Sequence record: OZ035756.1
From: Tequatrovirus LF73P3
Reading direction: 5' to 3' (one strand)
DNA length: 64,000 nt
Positions 13,530 through 44,346 of this stretch are shown piece after piece. Every line of letters begins with the position of its first letter. Position 1 is the stretch's first letter. A program made the translations under genes and the position numbers. Below the pieces are notes generated by a model, which saw nothing but the letters and a program-made list of their open reading frames with translations, searched no databases and was not told the DNA's origin.

Positions 13530-13993
13530 TAAAACGCTCGGTCAGAAAAAGAATTTTGAGTTTCAAGCCATTCAATATATTCTGCCGCAGCTTGCATTAA
13601 ATTTCCTTCATAACCATCGTTATTTTCTTGTGCAGCTAATTTAGCCAATGCGTATGAAATACGTTCACCCTGAAAAGCGGCTTTAGGTTTATGAATAGCT
13701 TGATCAACTCGTTCTACAACTTCTTCAATTTCGCCATTTTCTACTGATTCAGTATTCCACAAGCACCAATACGTAATTGGCTTATCATAGATGTTAATAA
13801 CCTTTCCGTCAGAAAGTTCAATTTCAATAATTCCAGTATCAGGTTCTATGTCATCTTCACATTCTTTTGCAAGTTCACGAACTTTAAATACAGTACCTGC
13901 ACTAAGTTCCGGCCAGTAATTACACAGCCCTTTATCAGCACGATTAATTCTAAACCACTTATCTACTGCAATCATGTCCCATCTCCATATCAA
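13529..13993 (-). CDS. hypothetical protein (pin/49.x region of the T4 map)
   Basis: 154 aa ORF, acidic. Confidence 0.5.
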   Translation of the reverse strand: MIWRWDMIAVDKWFRINRADKGLCNYWPELSAGTVFKVRELAKECEDDIEPDTGIIEIELSDGKVINIYDKPITYWCLWNTESVENGEIEEVVERVDQAIHKPKAAFQGERISYALAKLAAQENNDGYEGNLMQAAAEYIEWLETQNSFSDRAF

Positions 13994-14098: not shown

Positions 14099-14446
14099 TT
14101 ATAGCGTAATCCATTCTCGTACTGTCTGAGTTACTACGCGTTCACGGGGCTCGACTAGTTCAACAGTTGGAACTGCATAATACCAGTCAGAATGGTAAGA
14201 ACCTGAGCGAGTTTCATTTACAGACACATGAACGTTATGTTTTGGACTAAAATAAACACACTGACGATATTGGCATTTGCCATCTTGTACCCAATCTTCT
14301 ATTTCGACAGGTTTAAGATAATCCGAAAAATCGAAATCATAATTTTCTGAAAATCCATCATGGTCTTCGATGATTTCGCTCAGAACTGCATCAACATCGT
14401 AAATCATATTTACCCCAGTTTGACCATACAATCGCCATATTTCCAT
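14099..14446 (-). CDS. hypothetical protein
   Basis: 115 aa ORF. Confidence 0.5.
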   Translation of the reverse strand: MEIWRLYGQTGVNMIYDVDAVLSEIIEDHDGFSENYDFDFSDYLKPVEIEDWVQDGKCQYRQCVYFSPKHNVHVSVNETRSGSYHSDWYYAVPTVELVEPRERVVTQTVREWITL

Positions 14447-14886: not shown

Positions 14887-15144
14887 TTATTCCTTAATTC
14901 CTAGTACTTGTTTAAAAGTCTCGTCGTAATCAAGACTTTGGCCAGTTTGTTCTTTATGTTTGTATATAATATCACTTACTTCTGATAGCATATTTTTATA
15001 TGAACGGGTTAAAGCAGATTTAAGCACGCTGTATCTATCAGGAAATTTACCATGTTCATTATAATACGCTATTGCTAATTCACGGACTGCCTTTTCAGCA
15101 GTCTCCATATATTCTTTACGCTTTGTCATTTTCTTCTCGGTCAA
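14887..15144 (-). CDS. hypothetical protein (nrdC.1 position)
   Basis: 85 aa ORF. Confidence 0.5.
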
Positions 15145-15433
15145 ATCGGTGTTTGCAATGACGGCATTTATAACGAAGATTACTAGTCTGCCAATGAATT
15201 AATTGAACCTGTTCAGTACCGCATTCAGGACAATTAGGAACGTTTTTAGAAGCCCTTTCGCGACGTTCAACCATAACCATAATAGCATCCCAGGCTGGAG
15301 GTTTAAAATCTAAATCATCACAACCATGAATCTTTCCACGCATTTCCAGATCGTCTTCTTCACCAGCCATAATAATTTTAATTAGACTGGAATTACTTGA
15401 AGCTGCAATATCTTCTAATAGACGCTTTTTCAT
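15116..15433 (-). CDS. zinc-ribbon protein
   Basis: 105 aa; CPECG...CRHCKHR four-Cys pattern. Confidence 0.5.
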
Positions 15434-16407
15434 TTCAGCACCTCAATAGCATTACGTAAACCATTTGCTTTGGCGGTTAAAGCCTTAAGAACTTTAGTAT
15501 GATCTTCAATCTGTTTTTCAACTTCAATTAAGCGTGTATTAAGATATTCGCGTTCTTCGCTCAGATTATCAGCCTTTTCTGCTTTAGGTTCTTTTACAAC
15601 TGGCTTATATGTATTAGGGTTCTTCAGTTTAATTAGAATGCGTGAACTGTATAACATTGAACCATTATCTTCGGTTTCGTCATACATTTCCACTACGTCC
15701 ATCATCTCCACCATCGTGCAGAGTTTATAAGACAACGAACGAATAGTTTTGTTATGCTTATTAATTTCTCTAGCTGTCATGGTGCCGAGATTACGTGAGT
15801 AATAATAAGGAACCTGGATATTAATTAATACTGATGAACCACCTGGCTTGTGTGTTACTTCATCAGCAATAACCCAATCCTTAACATGAACTGTATTTGT
15901 ACGGTCATCACCCGCGGTAAATAGTTTGCGAGCATGCTTAAAAAGCATATTCACTTGGTCATTGAATTGACAAGCAAATTTATCAGCAAATTTAGTTTCA
16001 GGAATGGTAGATAACCAATCAGCCAAGTGGGTCTTTTTAACATCGTTAACAATAGTAAATTCAACCAAATCAGTTATAGATGTCGCAGATTTAATGAAGC
16101 TCGGCTTCATAAAGTTTTCAATGTTATCACGAGCTATCACAGAAGATAGTAATCGGGAACGTTTGAACCACTCTAGCAAAGAACCAAGAGAATGTGAATA
16201 TGCATTTTGTGTATCTTTACAAATATGGTTTTCCCATCCAATATAGTCTAAAAAATCACGAAGAATATTATTGATTACTTCTCTGTGTCCGATCTGATAA
16301 TTGCGGTGTTTAGTAATAAGACTGTCAAAATAATCAATATAATGTTTACGAGTCATATTAATCTCCTCAGTAGAAAGTAAGAACATTATACCACATCCTT
16401 GTGGCAA
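15430..16407 (-). CDS. hypothetical protein with C-terminal coiled-coil tail
   Basis: 325 aa (possibly 308 from MTRKHYIDY); C-terminal EEREYLNTRLIEVEKQIEDHTKVLKALTAKANGL heptad-like. Confidence 0.6.
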   Translation of the reverse strand: MPQGCGIMFLLSTEEINMTRKHYIDYFDSLITKHRNYQIGHREVINNILRDFLDYIGWENHICKDTQNAYSHSLGSLLEWFKRSRLLSSVIARDNIENFMKPSFIKSATSITDLVEFTIVNDVKKTHLADWLSTIPETKFADKFACQFNDQVNMLFKHARKLFTAGDDRTNTVHVKDWVIADEVTHKPGGSSVLINIQVPYYYSRNLGTMTAREINKHNKTIRSLSYKLCTMVEMMDVVEMYDETEDNGSMLYSSRILIKLKNPNTYKPVVKEPKAEKADNLSEEREYLNTRLIEVEKQIEDHTKVLKALTAKANGLRNAIEVLK

Positions 16408-16413
16408 AGTAAA

Positions 16414-17433
16414 CTAGTTTAGTGCATTTAGTGCATTGTTCAGTTTAGAACGTTGCTTCGTAAGATTTTTGACTTTTTCTTGAGCTTTTTCTAGCATCTT
16501 TTCAGCTTCTAACACTTCATTAGTTGCTTTAACGAGTTCATCATCTACTGCCTTGATAGACTTCTCAATCGCATCCGCGTGCCATTTTTCAACAGGTTTA
16601 AGACTCGGATTTTCAACAGGAAGAAAATTCACTTTATTGAATTTCCATGCATCATTATTACCTGAACTATACATCCAAAATTTAGGATCGTTTGATGAGC
16701 AATTGGATAAATTTAAGTTATCTTGCACTTCCTGCTTTTTCTCTTGCGGGACTTCGTCCTTTCTCAAAAAATCGTATTTAAATGAAACGATCATATCAAG
16801 TTCATACGTTGTTGTATGTTCCCAATTTCGCTCAAAATGAGGTAAAATCTTAGACTGAACAGCGGCAACAACATCCATATACTTAAATGCTTCTGTCAAC
16901 TGTGATTTAAGGCATTCGCAAATTGAAAGAGAATTTTTTGTATTAGGTTTAAAGCTAATTCGCGCAGTTCTGTTATTTTCTTTTAATGGTCTTACTTCCA
17001 TCTGAAGAGTATAACCATCAAATTTCAGATTCTTTAAGTTAATATCAGAACCTTTTAATCGACTCGCAATTGATAAAATTTGTTTTAATTGTTTACGGAA
17101 TAGAGCAATAAATCTCCATTCAATACGATAATGATTTGGATTGAAAAATCCAGATGATAAATCGACCTTACTTTGACCAACGCCTTGAACAAATAGAGGA
17201 TTTTTATAATCAATAGTTTTACAGAAATCGGTGAGCTGCTCACGAGCCGTCATTTGCGTAATATACCCTGCTTCGCTAAAATTACGCACCCATTCACTGC
17301 TATTCGTATATTTAAAATGAATATCACTATTAACTTTATCAGGGTCTAAATTATTTTGGCATAAAAATGTCATAACATCACGAGTATAGCTGGCATTACG
17401 AACCATATCTTCAATTTGAGAACGAGTTTTCAT
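16414..17433 (-). CDS. hypothetical protein with C-terminal coiled-coil tail
   Basis: 339 aa; C-terminal ELVKATNEVLEAEKMLEKAQEKVKNLTKQRSKLNNALNALN. Confidence 0.6.
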   Translation of the reverse strand: MKTRSQIEDMVRNASYTRDVMTFLCQNNLDPDKVNSDIHFKYTNSSEWVRNFSEAGYITQMTAREQLTDFCKTIDYKNPLFVQGVGQSKVDLSSGFFNPNHYRIEWRFIALFRKQLKQILSIASRLKGSDINLKNLKFDGYTLQMEVRPLKENNRTARISFKPNTKNSLSICECLKSQLTEAFKYMDVVAAVQSKILPHFERNWEHTTTYELDMIVSFKYDFLRKDEVPQEKKQEVQDNLNLSNCSSNDPKFWMYSSGNNDAWKFNKVNFLPVENPSLKPVEKWHADAIEKSIKAVDDELVKATNEVLEAEKMLEKAQEKVKNLTKQRSKLNNALNALN

Positions 17434-17441
17434 GGTATTCC

Positions 17442-18344
17442 TTAAGATTTAAGTAAATCGACAATTTTAATTAACTTTTCACGCTCAGATTTAGCTTTAC
17501 TACTCAGTCCAGATAGTCTGAAAATTTCATCATCATATTGTTGAATAGAAATATTCAGCTCTTCAATCTGTTTATTAAAATAATCAATTTGTTCAGAATG
17601 TTTTTCGTTACTACGAACTGGCACAGGTTTCGTAGGCAATGTAGTTGAACTGGATTCATTCGGGCGATAAATTAAAATACAACTTGAACCGATAGGGCAT
17701 TTTGCACCAGATGAATATTCTAATGTTCCAGCTTCTTTTAAAATTTCAAAAGCTAAACAGAGATGATGCCCCATATTGACATAATCTGTAGAGCGAGCTC
17801 TGATATAATAATCAATGCCACGAGTACTAAATTTAAAGCATTTAAGGTCTTCTGTATTATTGGTCTTAAAAATCATTTGTTTATCTAGACCTTTAGCTAA
17901 TCGAGCGCCCAATGCTAATAATCGTCGTTGATTTTCCCACAAATCCGTAATCATTTGATCGAATGATAATTTTGGCATTAGTCGACCATAAAGGTCATAT
18001 CCTTTATTATAATTACGAAGGATTTCACTCGCGTTAATACGAGACAATGCTCCAATTTTATTAAGGGCTTTCATAATGCGATTAGATAAAAGCATTCCAG
18101 ACCCGTTTGTTCGCTGTAAATGTTTTTCTAATCCAAATCCAATATCAACTTTAAACTTATCTAAAATTTCGGCATGAACATCTTTATCAATAACATTCAA
18201 ATCCAAAGTTGGGTTAAATCTATGAAAAAATTTATCTGGCTCTCCACGACGAAGTACAGTCCATTCGTTCGATTTTTTATTAACTAAAGATTTAATTACT
18301 GCATTGACATTATTAATTACTACTGACATATTTTCCTCACTCAA
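17442..18344 (-). CDS. hypothetical protein with C-terminal coiled-coil tail
   Basis: 300 aa; C-terminal IEELNISIQQYDDEIFRLSGLSSKAKSEREKLIKIVDLLKS. Confidence 0.6.
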   Translation of the reverse strand: MSEENMSVVINNVNAVIKSLVNKKSNEWTVLRRGEPDKFFHRFNPTLDLNVIDKDVHAEILDKFKVDIGFGLEKHLQRTNGSGMLLSNRIMKALNKIGALSRINASEILRNYNKGYDLYGRLMPKLSFDQMITDLWENQRRLLALGARLAKGLDKQMIFKTNNTEDLKCFKFSTRGIDYYIRARSTDYVNMGHHLCLAFEILKEAGTLEYSSGAKCPIGSSCILIYRPNESSSTTLPTKPVPVRSNEKHSEQIDYFNKQIEELNISIQQYDDEIFRLSGLSSKAKSEREKLIKIVDLLKS

Positions 18345-18738
18345 TTTTACTGATTATGCGGAATAAGATTGAACAGACTATATAAGTACCACACACAGAT
18401 TGAACTAATACCATTCCAAAGAACCAAACAATATTATCAAACCATGTCTGTTTTACGTCGAAAGGACGTAAACTTACAGTAATATTATCGCCTTTTTCTA
18501 TTGATGAATACATCTCTGGGGAAATATATTCACTAAATCTATAACCGTCTTTGAGTTCATATACAGCAATAAACGATAAACTAGACCCTTTTCCTTGAGT
18601 TCCTGTAAGGGTATTAACTACAGTAACATCATAATCTTTATAATGCATATAATCATTAATTGCGTAATAACCATATGCAACTACTACACATAAACAACAT
18701 ATCAATAAATTCAATCTTTTAATTATCAACTGTTTCAT
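18337..18738 (-). CDS. membrane protein (N- and C-terminal TM segments)
   Basis: 133 aa; LLICCLCVVVAYGYYAI and WFFGMVLVQSVCGTYIVCSILF hydrophobic stretches. Confidence 0.5.
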   Translation of the reverse strand: MKQLIIKRLNLLICCLCVVVAYGYYAINDYMHYKDYDVTVVNTLTGTQGKGSSLSFIAVYELKDGYRFSEYISPEMYSSIEKGDNITVSLRPFDVKQTWFDNIVWFFGMVLVQSVCGTYIVCSILFRIISKIE

Positions 18739-18793
18739 AATAATCTCAATTAAAAGGGCTTAGAACCATTATACCATCCTTGGTATAAAGCGG

Positions 18794-19321
18794 TTATGCG
18801 AGTACCGTCTTTAACCGTTCTTCAAACTTCCGAAGAGTATTTTGGCGTTCAGCTCTTTGCTTTTTGTAAGTTTCAATACGCTCTGAAATGAGAGAATATC
18901 GTTCATTTATTGATTCTTTCATAAAATCAGGAATTTCACGAGAAGCTTTAATCTCGTCAAATTTATCAATAACAGCTTGCTCTTCAGCAATTAAGTTATC
19001 ATACATTAAAATATCTTTCTTGATGAACTCAATATCTTCTTGAGTTACACGAGATAATTTAGATGCTTTATCCTTTTTGTACTGTTCATTAGTATCACGA
19101 GACCAGTGTAATGTACGATTTTTATTCGTATTTTTGTAAATTTCTACAATACCGATCTCATCAATAATAACGATCCAATTCCAACGGGATTTGTAAATTT
19201 GTCCTCCATCAACAGTGATTTCACCTCCGATTGAGATGTCGTTAAAGAACTTGCTTTGTGCTTCAGATTTAAATTTACCATCGTTGTAATTTACCAAGTT
19301 GAAAATATCTTTAGCGTTCAT
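18794..19321 (-). CDS. hypothetical protein with C-terminal coiled coil
   Basis: 175 aa ORF immediately downstream of an early promoter. Confidence 0.55.
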   Translation of the reverse strand: MNAKDIFNLVNYNDGKFKSEAQSKFFNDISIGGEITVDGGQIYKSRWNWIVIIDEIGIVEIYKNTNKNRTLHWSRDTNEQYKKDKASKLSRVTQEDIEFIKKDILMYDNLIAEEQAVIDKFDEIKASREIPDFMKESINERYSLISERIETYKKQRAERQNTLRKFEERLKTVLA

Positions 19322-19786: not shown

Positions 19787-20773
19787 TTATTTCAGAAGAG
19801 TAACCTCAGCGATTTCTTGCCAACCGTTTTTGTCGGTCATAATAAAGTCAGCAAGATAAAGAGCAGTACGCAGTGAAACATTGCGTAAACGATTAACATT
19901 AACTTTCATCCATGATAATGCTTTATAAGTTTCTTCATCAGAAAGACCGCGCTTTTGCATCATGTCAGTTGAAAGAATAACATCTTCAACCCTGACCATA
20001 ATTTCTTCATTAGTGTGAACACCCAAATCCAAATAAACCGAGCGGGACACTAATGCTTGTAAATGTGGAGCAAGTTTAGTACCACGGTCTAATTCGCGGT
20101 CAATGTCAACGTTTGTGATAAAAACAATCGTTCCTTTAAATTCAAACTCACGGTCAATGCCTTTTTCTTCTAAGTAAGAAGATGCAGTGCTCCAGCAGAC
20201 TTTACGGGTCTCTCCAGTGTCCAGAGCAGCTTTTAGAAGATTAAGAATGTCCATATCAGAGAAAACATCCACATCATCAATCAAAAGGACAGAATTCTCT
20301 TCACGATTATTCCAAAGCTGCTCATAAAGACCAATACCAGAGATTTTACCATTAATGCTTTTATATTCAATGTATCCGTTATCATTTGCTTTATTTAAAG
20401 CTTTATCTAAAGAATACGTTTTACCAATACCTGCTGCGCCAGAGATAATTAATGAACGAATATTTCCATTAATAATACCATTCGTCATCATTCCCATAAC
20501 ATTAAATCTTTTATTAATGCGGGTTTTCATATCTTCATATGATTCTTTAACTTCTTCAACTTTTACACCATCATATGAAATATCTGATTTGTAAACCCAA
20601 ACACCGCGACGTTTACCGTCAATTTCAACAAAAACTTTACCATCTCCTTGTGCATCTACCGGAGCATTATCTGGGAACCATTCGCCTAAGAGCTCAAAAG
20701 TTCCAGAGATTTCTTTACCGAAGTAGATACCCTTATTGATAGTTACAGTTTTCATTTTATTCTCCAATTTCAC
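19787..20773 (-). CDS. P-loop NTPase (AAA-like ATPase) of unknown role
   Basis: 328 aa; Walker A GAAGIGKT and Walker B VLLIDDVD. Confidence 0.65.
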   Translation of the reverse strand: MKLENKMKTVTINKGIYFGKEISGTFELLGEWFPDNAPVDAQGDGKVFVEIDGKRRGVWVYKSDISYDGVKVEEVKESYEDMKTRINKRFNVMGMMTNGIINGNIRSLIISGAAGIGKTYSLDKALNKANDNGYIEYKSINGKISGIGLYEQLWNNREENSVLLIDDVDVFSDMDILNLLKAALDTGETRKVCWSTASSYLEEKGIDREFEFKGTIVFITNVDIDRELDRGTKLAPHLQALVSRSVYLDLGVHTNEEIMVRVEDVILSTDMMQKRGLSDEETYKALSWMKVNVNRLRNVSLRTALYLADFIMTDKNGWQEIAEVTLLK

Positions 20774-38104: not shown

Positions 38105-38668
38105 TTATTTATCTAGTTTAGTTATTATAGCTTCGGCAGCAGCTTTTAGCTTAGATGCGGTGTTAATACGATTTTTAATTTCAGTATACGCATCGCCAAG
38201 AACGTCGAGGCTATCAGAATAAACACTTACACTATTGCGTTCGCTATTTGAAATAGAACCTTTAGTTTTACGATCAAAATCAGTGTACACGTCTTGAAGA
38301 TCACGGGCTGCCTTCTTTGCATCATCCAATGCATCAAGAGCTTTATTCAAAGCATTAACGTATTTTTTAGTGTCGAACATATTCTTAGAAATTTTAACAG
38401 GTGCACGTTCAGGAGTAGCTAAGGCAGATTTAGGAACCTGAGCGCCTGATGCTAATTTCTTAGAAATTTTGAAAAATGCTTTATTGAATTTATTTTCTTG
38501 ACTCATCGTAAAAGAACTATTATCAATGTTATACATTTCAATAGCTTTAGCTTTCCACTTAAGAAAATCGCCACGGTCTTTTGGGTCCAATTGGAAGAAT
38601 ACTTTAGTAAGATCTGCTTCAGATGGTAATTTTGCTGCTTCGGTTAAAAATTCGGCATAGGTTTTCAT
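38105..38668 (-). CDS. internal-protein-like capsid-targeted protein (CTS-bearing)
   Basis: 187 aa; N-terminal MKTYAEFLTEA matches the capsid targeting sequence/prohead-protease cleavage context of T4 internal proteins. Confidence 0.6.
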   Translation of the reverse strand: MKTYAEFLTEAAKLPSEADLTKVFFQLDPKDRGDFLKWKAKAIEMYNIDNSSFTMSQENKFNKAFFKISKKLASGAQVPKSALATPERAPVKISKNMFDTKKYVNALNKALDALDDAKKAARDLQDVYTDFDRKTKGSISNSERNSVSVYSDSLDVLGDAYTEIKNRINTASKLKAAAEAIITKLDK

Positions 38669-43815: not shown

Positions 43816-44346
43816 TTAAACTTCTGCTATAATTTTGCCATCTTTTTCTACTTGAAAATACGTATAAGGAATCGTTGCTGTGCATACTAAGGCTGGGTCT
43901 GAATCTTCTGTGTAGCTAAATTCTACTTCAGACAGGTCAGAAACCCAAGGCTTATAAAAGTTTATTGACATCACGATTTCAGTTTTACTATTATCTAAAA
44001 TGTAAAGCGTAATGTATTCAGGACCTGTTTTTTGGGCAGTATTTTCACCTGTAAGATAGTTACTAGTTCCTAGCATCCATTCATACATTCCTATCCACGA
44101 CTTAAGCTCTTCATCAACTATAAATCTCACGATGAGTGGATCGTACTCAAATGTAACTCCTGGACGTTGTGCTCTGCCTAGTCCAAACGGCCCAGTCACG
44201 GTATCAGTAACAGGTATCCTAATTCCTGGAATAGGAACTGACTGAGCATTTAAAGTAAAAGCAGATGTAGTATTACTATGCGGTATTGATACTACAAAGT
44301 TAGTTGTATTTGCTTGGTTAAAAATTTGTTGCAGTGCTTGCGACAT
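43816..44346 (-). CDS. 3: tail completion / sheath stabiliser gp3
   Basis: 176 aa from MSQALQQIFNQANTTNFVV (track ORF has a 27-codon N-extension). Confidence 0.8.
   Translation of the reverse strand: MSQALQQIFNQANTTNFVVSIPHSNTTSAFTLNAQSVPIPGIRIPVTDTVTGPFGLGRAQRPGVTFEYDPLIVRFIVDEELKSWIGMYEWMLGTSNYLTGENTAQKTGPEYITLYILDNSKTEIVMSINFYKPWVSDLSEVEFSYTEDSDPALVCTATIPYTYFQVEKDGKIIAEV

Follow-up and report, generated by a model that had tools for sequence, protein, structure and literature searches.

Candidate paralogous early proteins with C-terminal coiled-coil-like tails in the nrdC region of a T4-like phage

Background

In bacteriophage T4, nrdC.5 is an early gene with a published counter-defence phenotype. 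An evolved T4 clone with compensatory deletions was unable to plate on ECOR17, and disruption of the host gene dsr1 restored plating. Plasmid-borne dsr1 protects MG1655, and T4 nrdC.5 on a plasmid restores plating of the deletion mutant on MG1655 with dsr1 (Srikant et al., eLife 2022, PMC9391042). Two other factors from the same part of the genome are known to counter host defences: Gp49.2 inhibits OLD (PMC13096335), and NrdC.1 inhibits Septu (HIDEN-SEQ preprint, 10.1101/2025.11.20.689424). No later paper on the mechanism of NrdC.5 against Dsr1 and no published work on the function of NrdC.3, NrdC.4 or NrdC.6 was found in the literature. Here we consider the orthologues of nrdC.3, nrdC.5 and nrdC.6 in a stretch of 64,000 nucleotides from Tequatrovirus LF73P3 (sequence record OZ035756.1), below called the window. 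The three genes lie on the minus strand within positions 15430-18344.

In our opinion, this region is rather probably an accessory anti-defence island containing a family of diverging paralogues, in which variable bodies are mounted on an oligomerising tail.

Results

Identity of the genes

The window belongs to a T4-like myovirus of the genus Tequatrovirus with about 96% identity to known genomes; megablast of 15430-19321 matched 740 phage records, the best of them at 96% identity. Endonuclease VII, Pin and the NrdC thioredoxin serve as upstream markers in the window. The minus-strand genes that follow nrdC carry the names nrdC.1 to nrdC.11 in T4 and in a well-annotated relative, SA21RB. The first-pass annotation of the window reported open reading frames (ORFs) of 325, 339 and 300 amino acids (aa) lying head to tail, and these are indeed present on the minus strand at 15430-16407, 16414-17433 and 17442-18344. 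With the starts corrected as described below, they are the orthologues of nrdC.3 (15430..16356, 308 aa), nrdC.5 (16414..17433, 339 aa) and nrdC.6 (17442..18329, 295 aa).

The NrdC.5 protein of the window matches the Pfam family DUF7235 (PF23882) with expectation value (E) 6.3e-125, its residues 1-339 covering positions 1-307 of the 307-position profile with 417 bits at a cut-off of 30. It is 92% identical to T4 NrdC.5 over 331 residues. NrdC.6 is 97% identical to its T4 counterpart and belongs to PF26899 (Phage_T4_Y05B), which is carried by all 105 of its 105 homologues, and to PHROG 2257 (E 5e-150). NrdC.3 is a divergent allele, having 64% identity to T4 NrdC.3 and 92% to NrdC.3 of SA21RB by blastp. 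The local copy of Pfam lacked the model of its family, PF26897 (Phage_T4_Y04OP), and membership was taken from the precomputed domains of homologues (33 of 33, at 60-94% identity) and from PHROG 1435 (E 2e-115). The PHROG matches of both NrdC.3 and NrdC.6 are full length. T4 has both nrdC.3 and nrdC.4, whereas the window phage has a single Y04OP copy, of the nrdC.3 type, and no nrdC.4. Thus each gene as such is an already catalogued T4 ORF with its own Pfam family.

Many homologues of NrdC.3 to NrdC.8 in GenBank and UniRef are labelled 'thioredoxin'. We reject this label: no thioredoxin domain was found by Pfam or NCBIfam in any of the four proteins NrdC.3, NrdC.5, NrdC.6 and NrdC.8, and the label is inherited from the nrdC.N names. 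A few records call such homologues 'Mur ligase domain-containing'. NCBIfam and PADLOC searches produced nothing for these proteins. An enzymatic role is rejected, as there is neither a motif nor a family match in Pfam, NCBIfam or PADLOC, in agreement with the first-pass annotation, which had recognised no enzymatic motif.

Probable paralogy of NrdC.3, NrdC.4 and NrdC.5

Direct blastp among the three window proteins yields E 0.04-1, which is nonsignificant. At the level of profiles, however, NrdC.3, NrdC.4 and NrdC.5 are linked. The families were enlarged with proteins from SA21RB, T4, VR26 (Gaprivervirus), QL01 and IME281 (Dhakavirus), RB69 (Mosigvirus) and two metagenomic contigs. The first hhalign comparisons, made on close homologues with an effective number of sequences (Neff) of about 1.5, were nearly uninformative; they became better after distant genera and metagenomic loci were added.

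Window NrdC.3 matches SA21RB NrdC.4 by blastp with E 8e-14, and the hhalign probability for this pair is 97.8% (E 6.5e-13) over approximately 221 N-terminal columns. These alignments clearly make NrdC.3 a paralogue of NrdC.4. NrdC.4 and NrdC.5 align at 93.1% (E 3e-7) over 243 columns, residues 64-337 with 50-339, and with the tails removed they still align at 92.3% (E 5e-7) over 157 columns. The score of 57 is to be compared with 16.5 for the reversed template and at most 22.3 for 40 column-shuffled templates. Thus NrdC.4 and NrdC.5 are probably remote paralogues over both body and tail. The Pfam model of DUF7235 also touches the NrdC.3 ORF, at residues 150-325 (E 0.014). The initial description of the tails as attached to distinct globular bodies is therefore wrong for NrdC.3, NrdC.4 and NrdC.5, because the NrdC.4-NrdC.5 match persists without the tails.

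The position of NrdC.6 is less certain. Its hhalign match with NrdC.3 has a probability of 32-53% (E 1.3e-4 to 4.9e-4) and covers only the C-terminal third, that is, the last strands, the linker and the tail; the score is 34, with 15.6 for the reversed template and a maximum of 20 for shuffled ones. The local alignments of NrdC.3 and NrdC.4 with NrdC.6 are collinear (58-167 with 83-168, and 209-308 with 187-294). This collinearity and the shared order of structural elements favour NrdC.6 as a possible, very remote homologue.

The phmmer search with NrdC.5 against 1.84 billion representatives found 12 proteins, none of them from the other families, and therefore the NrdC.5 family is narrow. A scan of viral contigs for related loci returned five loci, all from close relatives.

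The C-terminal tails

The last 42 residues of each protein were examined for heptad periodicity by comparing L/I/V/M at positions a and d with other positions. The controls were 5000 shuffles of the same residues and a background of 2389 42-aa windows taken from the ORFs of the window itself. The score was reached by 3 of 5000 shuffles for NrdC.3 (top 0.13% of the background), by 15 for NrdC.5 (top 0.7%), by 90 for NrdC.6 (top 1.6%) and by 296 for NrdC.8 (top 5%). NrdC.4 of SA21RB has no continuous 42-residue heptad run; 2568 of 5000 shuffles reached its score, which lies at about 34% of the background. Hence NrdC.3 and NrdC.5 have significant periodicity, that of NrdC.6 is weaker, and NrdC.8 is a marginal case.

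The heptad tail of NrdC.3 comprises residues 263-308 (15433..15570, minus strand), as seen from the heptad test, the register and the match of the NrdC.5 tail model described below. The tail of NrdC.5 comprises residues 281-339 (16417..16593, minus strand) and is predicted by AlphaFold2 to form a single 58-residue helix at 281-338 with predicted local distance difference test (pLDDT) values of 82-93. It is the C-terminus of this 339-aa ORF that was quoted earlier as an example of a tail peptide. In NrdC.6 the tail comprises residues 242-295 (17445..17606, minus strand); the AlphaFold2 model has two helices here, 242-271 and 277-294, broken at LSGLS, and the heptad test and the register point to the same region. 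Thus the Lys/Glu-rich heptad tails reported for the three ORFs are real. As a solvent-exposed amphipathic helix of 58 residues is unstable alone, an intermolecular partner is implied.

The tails are weakly alike by sequence and clearly alike by geometry. Hidden Markov models (HMMs) built from the last 50 residues of each family were compared with all 539 stop-to-stop ORFs of the window, and the only cross-detection among the families is that of NrdC.3 by the NrdC.5 tail (E 0.003). The tail HMMs of NrdC.3, NrdC.4, NrdC.6 and NrdC.8 match only themselves among these ORFs. On the other hand, if the register is anchored on the terminal lysine (Lys at position e), it is identical in 15 of 15 distinct NrdC.3 tails, 20 of 20 NrdC.5 tails and 33 of 34 NrdC.6 tails. 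The end motif L-x-x-[AI]-[ILV]-x-x-L-K is common to four families, with such examples as RLEQALQLIK, KLNNALNALN/K and KLIKIVDLLK(S). The similarity of the tails noted at first reading therefore lies in the register and the end motif rather than in the sequence at large. In NrdC.3, NrdC.5 and NrdC.6 the linker ends with a KPV motif, as seen by direct reading of the sequences.

A profile search of the PDB sequences produced only nonsignificant coiled-coil matches, such as keratin and the myosin rod (E 0.25-0.65). The tails of NrdC.3 and NrdC.4 contain RLIEVE and RLDRLE, respectively, which would fit the 'trimerisation motif' R-h-x-x-h-E; no weight is placed on this.

The second-best non-self match of the NrdC.5 tail HMM is a 187-aa ORF at 38105-38668 on the minus strand (E 0.021) with a helical C-terminus …SKLKAAAEAIITKLDK. 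This ORF has no Pfam or NCBIfam family, and it has no counterpart in T4 positions 69-81 kb.

Bodies, linkers and predicted fold

The AlphaFold2 model of NrdC.5 was built from a 9-sequence alignment (mean pLDDT 64.8), and that of NrdC.6 from 24 sequences (mean pLDDT 77.8, predicted template modelling score 0.65). Residues 99-227 of NrdC.5 (16753..17139, minus strand) are predicted to form an alpha/beta core with the order alpha-alpha-beta-beta-alpha-beta-beta. The core is followed by a low-confidence, probably disordered linker at residues 228-280 (16594..16752, minus strand; pLDDT 28-47, with values below 50 at 228-276), which ends in the conserved pattern KP[VI]E-x-[WY]HA[DE] where K279, P280, E282, H285 and A286 are invariant. 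A low-confidence linker is also seen in the NrdC.6 model, at 227-241. The order of elements is the same in the two models: N-terminal helices, two helices, a beta-hairpin, a helix, two strands, the linker and the tail helix. A sequence search of the PDB found no solved structure of any family member.

The Foldseek search of BFVD returned first uncharacterised Straboviridae proteins of about 220-370 aa and then tail completion proteins. The Straboviridae that encode the uncharacterised proteins include Erwinia Cronus, Klebsiella Mineola, Aeromonas 65.2, Serratia CBH8 and PS2, Pectobacterium PM2 and Citrobacter Merlin. The predicted NrdC.5 core appears to resemble the tail-terminator and tail-completion folds. 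Its two-layer alpha/beta sandwich is a simple fold, with matches also to RNA polymerase alpha/RPB11 and to designed proteins. The tail-terminator matches were not recovered with the NrdC.6 model, and hhalign of the families against T4 gp3 (43819-44346 in the window) showed no relation. The tail-terminator-like core of the NrdC.5 model is a tentative lead only.

Starts, promoters and the missing nrdC.4

The nrdC.3 gene starts at ATG 16356, yielding 308 aa instead of 325. The start was corrected because the 5' extension of the ORF is filled by a site resembling T4 early promoters and by a Shine-Dalgarno box. The promoter-like site (16385..16413, minus strand) is TTTACT-17 nt-TATAAT with TG upstream, located between the nrdC.5 stop codon (16414) and the nrdC.3 start; it is followed by GAGGAG and then by ATG 16356. 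The SA21RB record has an annotated early promoter at the corresponding position. The nrdC.6 gene starts at ATG 18329 preceded by GAGGA and encodes 295 aa instead of 300. Similar promoter-like sites are located upstream of nrdC.8 and nrdC.10.

In T4 and SA21RB nrdC.4 is placed between nrdC.5 and nrdC.3, corresponding to the junction 16407-16414 in the window. Its annotated product varies by record from 333 to 343 aa, and it is found in most Tequatrovirus genomes. The best megablast matches of 15430-19321 come in two pieces spanning approximately 1.07 kb beyond the query, because nrdC.4 is absent here. It is also absent from RB69 and a few close relatives; ECO07P1 and LYE-01 align in one piece.

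Distribution and plasticity

By tblastn, NrdC.6 is found in 741 phage records, NrdC.3 in 653, NrdC.5 in 581 and NrdC.4 in about 550. The order NrdC.8-(7)-6-5-4/3 is kept across Tequatrovirus, Gaprivervirus, Dhakavirus and Mosigvirus. Alleles of NrdC.3 fall into three classes, with 90-97%, 73-76% and 62-64% identity; the 75 N-terminal residues and the tail are conserved in them, and the body is divergent. The nrdC block is accessory and plastic.

Several rearranged or truncated forms were observed. In ACG-C40 (L018, 3305-3716) a deletion joins the first ~70 codons of nrdC.5 to the nrdC.3 tail with the loss of nrdC.4; this genome retains NrdC.6 and has lost NrdC.5, NrdC.4 and NrdC.3. A 299-aa metagenomic protein (P0056) consists of the NrdC.5 body and core fused to the C-terminal half of NrdC.3, with the junction ...KFNKVN|MLFKHARKLF. 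Another protein, of 173 aa (P0201), encoded in an 803-bp ENA contig (L002), has an unrelated N-terminal body (MEQRLDEWRRYFKDL...) and a 95%-identical NrdC.5 tail. This may reflect genuine shuffling of modules or a chimera of the assembly, and the contig is too short to distinguish between the two.

Two further cases concern reading frames. In the T4 reference (NC_000866.4, locus L005, 3603-4500) NrdC.6 is annotated as a 275-aa protein with an aberrant end, and the conserved tail (…ISIQQYDDEIFRLSGLSSKAKSEREKLIKIVDLLKS) is in another frame. In resequenced T4 (MT984581.1, locus L017, 3192-4082) NrdC.6 is intact and has 296 aa, and therefore the reference record probably carries a frameshift error. 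In RB69 (AY303349.1, locus L010, 5974-6990) the annotated NrdC.5 has 300 aa and no tail, and the canonical tail (…LSVELDKAQAKLRDAQSVVTNLQLQYSKLFNAMNALKS) lies just downstream in a different frame; the record may contain a frameshift, or the gene may truly be a pseudogene.

Neighbouring genes

The 175-aa ORF reported at 18794-19321 (minus strand) is present and is the orthologue of nrdC.8, 98% identical to the T4 protein and belonging to PF26901 (Phage_T4_Y05D). Its C-terminus is helical and Lys/Glu/Arg-rich, and to this extent the tail is of the kind that was ascribed to it. However, its heptad signal is marginal and hhalign finds nothing between NrdC.8 and any of the other proteins; with no relation by tail HMM either, NrdC.8 is rejected as a family member. 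Thus the paralogous family proposed in the first-pass annotation stands for NrdC.3, NrdC.4 and NrdC.5, possibly extends to NrdC.6, and does not include NrdC.8. The nrdC.7 orthologue, located between nrdC.8 and nrdC.6 (18337..18738, minus strand), encodes a predicted membrane protein of 133 aa, which is not a member of the NrdC.3-6 family.

Just downstream of nrdC.3, all on the minus strand, the window contains orthologues of NrdC.1 (14890-15129, 100% identity), Gp49.2 (14102-14398, 95% identity) and Pin (13538-13975), the last of them annotated as a Lon inhibitor. Since these orthologues are adjacent, the whole block looks like a counter-defence island.

The start of nrdC.2 (15116-15433, minus strand, 105 aa) overlaps the stop of nrdC.3 by 4 nt. 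The C-terminus of NrdC.2 has a CxxC...CxxC zinc-ribbon signature with weak matches to several zinc-ribbon families below the cut-offs (E 7e-5 to 1e-3). The NrdC.10 orthologue (19787-20773, minus strand), 98% identical to the T4 protein, has weak P-loop NTPase matches to nSTAND3, AAA_16, AAA_22 and clamp-loader PHROGs, also below the cut-offs (E ~1e-4), and no PADLOC match.

Discussion

The model that we favour is as follows. The genes nrdC.3, nrdC.5 and nrdC.6 are early, non-essential accessory genes belonging to the variable block that follows nrdC. Their products and NrdC.4, NrdC.6 with less certainty, would be diverged paralogues with a common architecture, in which a helical N-terminal region precedes a small alpha/beta core, and a flexible linker leads from the core to an amphipathic C-terminal helix; the last two heptads of this helix are conserved. 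The tail may form a homo-oligomer, a dimer or a trimer, and so present two or three copies of a fast-diverging body, and the bodies might bind host immune proteins stoichiometrically. NrdC.5 would have as its target Dsr1, a SIR2-type NAD+-depleting defence protein. NrdC.5 would most likely bind Dsr1 and block its activation, thus sparing NAD+, and an oligomeric tail could add avidity to this binding. NrdC.3 and NrdC.6, as candidates for counter-defence or host-range functions, would have other targets.

Several points weigh against this model. The profiles used in hhalign are shallow (Neff 1.5-2.6). The NrdC.6 bodies match the other families with probabilities of only 2-4% (E 0.009-0.021), and NrdC.5 against NrdC.6 is nonsignificant, also with DSSP strings from the models added. 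The NrdC.5 model is of moderate quality. Oligomerisation via the tail is a prediction from models of monomers, and the helix-break-helix tail of NrdC.6 could, according to its model, fold back on itself. NrdC.3 and NrdC.6 are anti-defence candidates by paralogy and neighbourhood only. Finally, the Dsr1 sensor domain, which is shared with Avs7, is reported to recognise the major capsid protein in Drexlerviridae phages (Nature 2026, PMC13581612), and capsid recognition by such sensors gives no hint of how NrdC.5 acts.

It may be that the proteins are unrelated, with independent bodies and convergent tails, as amphipathic C-terminal helices are common in small phage early proteins. This would explain why the tail-only HMMs mostly fail to cross-detect, why blastp among the window proteins is nonsignificant, and why neither NrdC.5 with NrdC.6 nor NrdC.8 with any other family can be aligned; moreover, the unrelated 187-aa ORF scores nearly as well with the NrdC.5 tail HMM as NrdC.3 does. 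However, the bodies of NrdC.4 and NrdC.5 match each other far above the reversed and shuffled controls, NrdC.3 matches NrdC.4 and is touched by DUF7235, the alignments of NrdC.3 and NrdC.4 with NrdC.6 are collinear, and the element order in the NrdC.5 and NrdC.6 models and the register of the tails are the same. We consider convergence unlikely. The hetero-oligomeric complex suggested in the first-pass annotation, in which similar tails would join NrdC.3, NrdC.5, NrdC.6 and perhaps NrdC.8 into one machine, is consistent with the same register and terminal motif in three or four families and with the adjacent, closely packed genes on one strand, whose order is kept in four genera. It is disfavoured because the genes are gained and lost independently and because NrdC.5 alone works in trans. 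Indeed, the membership varies: nrdC.4 is missing from the window phage and from RB69, the numbers of records differ between the families, and ACG-C40 has NrdC.6 and none of the other three. In addition, an early promoter of its own precedes nrdC.3, there is little sequence similarity between the tails, and NrdC.5 supplied in trans is apparently sufficient against Dsr1, subject to how far the deletion in the mutant extends. Such a machine seems quite improbable.

The resemblance of the NrdC.5 core to tail terminators could also mean that these are virion or assembly proteins, neck or tail-completion paralogues acting in morphogenesis. We reject this role, as the genes are early and dispensable; it seems highly improbable to us. 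The genes belong to the early non-essential nrdC block and have early promoters, and natural and laboratory deletions occur without loss of viability, which already implies normal particles. No sequence relation to gp3 is seen, the simple sandwich has other structural matches, and the NrdC.6 model does not recover the tail-terminator matches, the confidence of the models being moderate. Returning to the paralogues of the anti-defence island, a bolder version of that model may be formulated. NrdC.3 to NrdC.6 would be one diversifying family of early coiled-coil inhibitors or decoys, each acting against a different host sensor; their core would come from a recruited tail-terminator-like protein, and the avidity provided by the tail would block oligomeric sensors. 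We consider this version doubtful.

In themselves these observations have little significance, as they concern catalogued T4 ORFs, one of them with a published anti-Dsr1 phenotype. What is new here is modest: NrdC.4 and NrdC.5 are linked in a superfamily, the tails have a register and an end motif in common, and a tail-terminator-like core is tentatively proposed for the anti-Dsr1 protein. Of some use is the observation that this protein, NrdC.5, appears to be part of a set of tandem diverged paralogues with a shared body-linker-helix plan, in an island that also carries anti-OLD and anti-Septu factors. On this ground NrdC.3, NrdC.4 and NrdC.6 would be candidates to include in counter-defence screens. 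In a study of how NrdC.5 inhibits Dsr1, mutation would begin with the C-terminal helix and the alpha/beta core.

Comparison with known systems

The tail terminator and completion proteins with the lambda gpU fold (P74-26, T5 p142 and DUF3168 of SaPI1) have 4-13% sequence identity to NrdC.5. Proteins of this kind are late structural proteins, products of essential morphogenesis genes, whereas the NrdC genes are accessory and dispensable and lie in an early-promoter block downstream of nrdC. In addition to the core, NrdC.5 has N-terminal helices, a disordered linker and a coiled-coil tail, and, unlike the gpU-like tail terminators, it has no known context of a hexamer ring. Gp49.2 and NrdC.1 share with it the same early accessory island, at a distance of less than 3 kb, but they are small, unrelated, and lack the body-linker-tail plan.

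Two reports (PMC10973363, PMC11087589) describe DSAD1, a protein of phage origin that binds a SIR2-type NAD+-depleting defence protein and thereby neutralises it. DSAD1 comes from Bacillus phages and targets DSR2, not Dsr1, whereas the binding of NrdC.5 to Dsr1 is something that we infer. No relation of the two proteins in sequence or structure was found, although no search aimed at one was made. With these differences, DSAD1 may serve as a working analogy for NrdC.5. The closest described system is T4 NrdC.5 itself (UniProt-style name Y05A). It has the same neighbours on the same strand as the 339-aa ORF of the window, variation between the two proteins falls at the extreme C-terminus and in a few linker residues, and nothing material is different. 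The anti-Dsr1 phenotype has been demonstrated for the T4 protein, and at the level of identity given above the window allele would be its counterpart.

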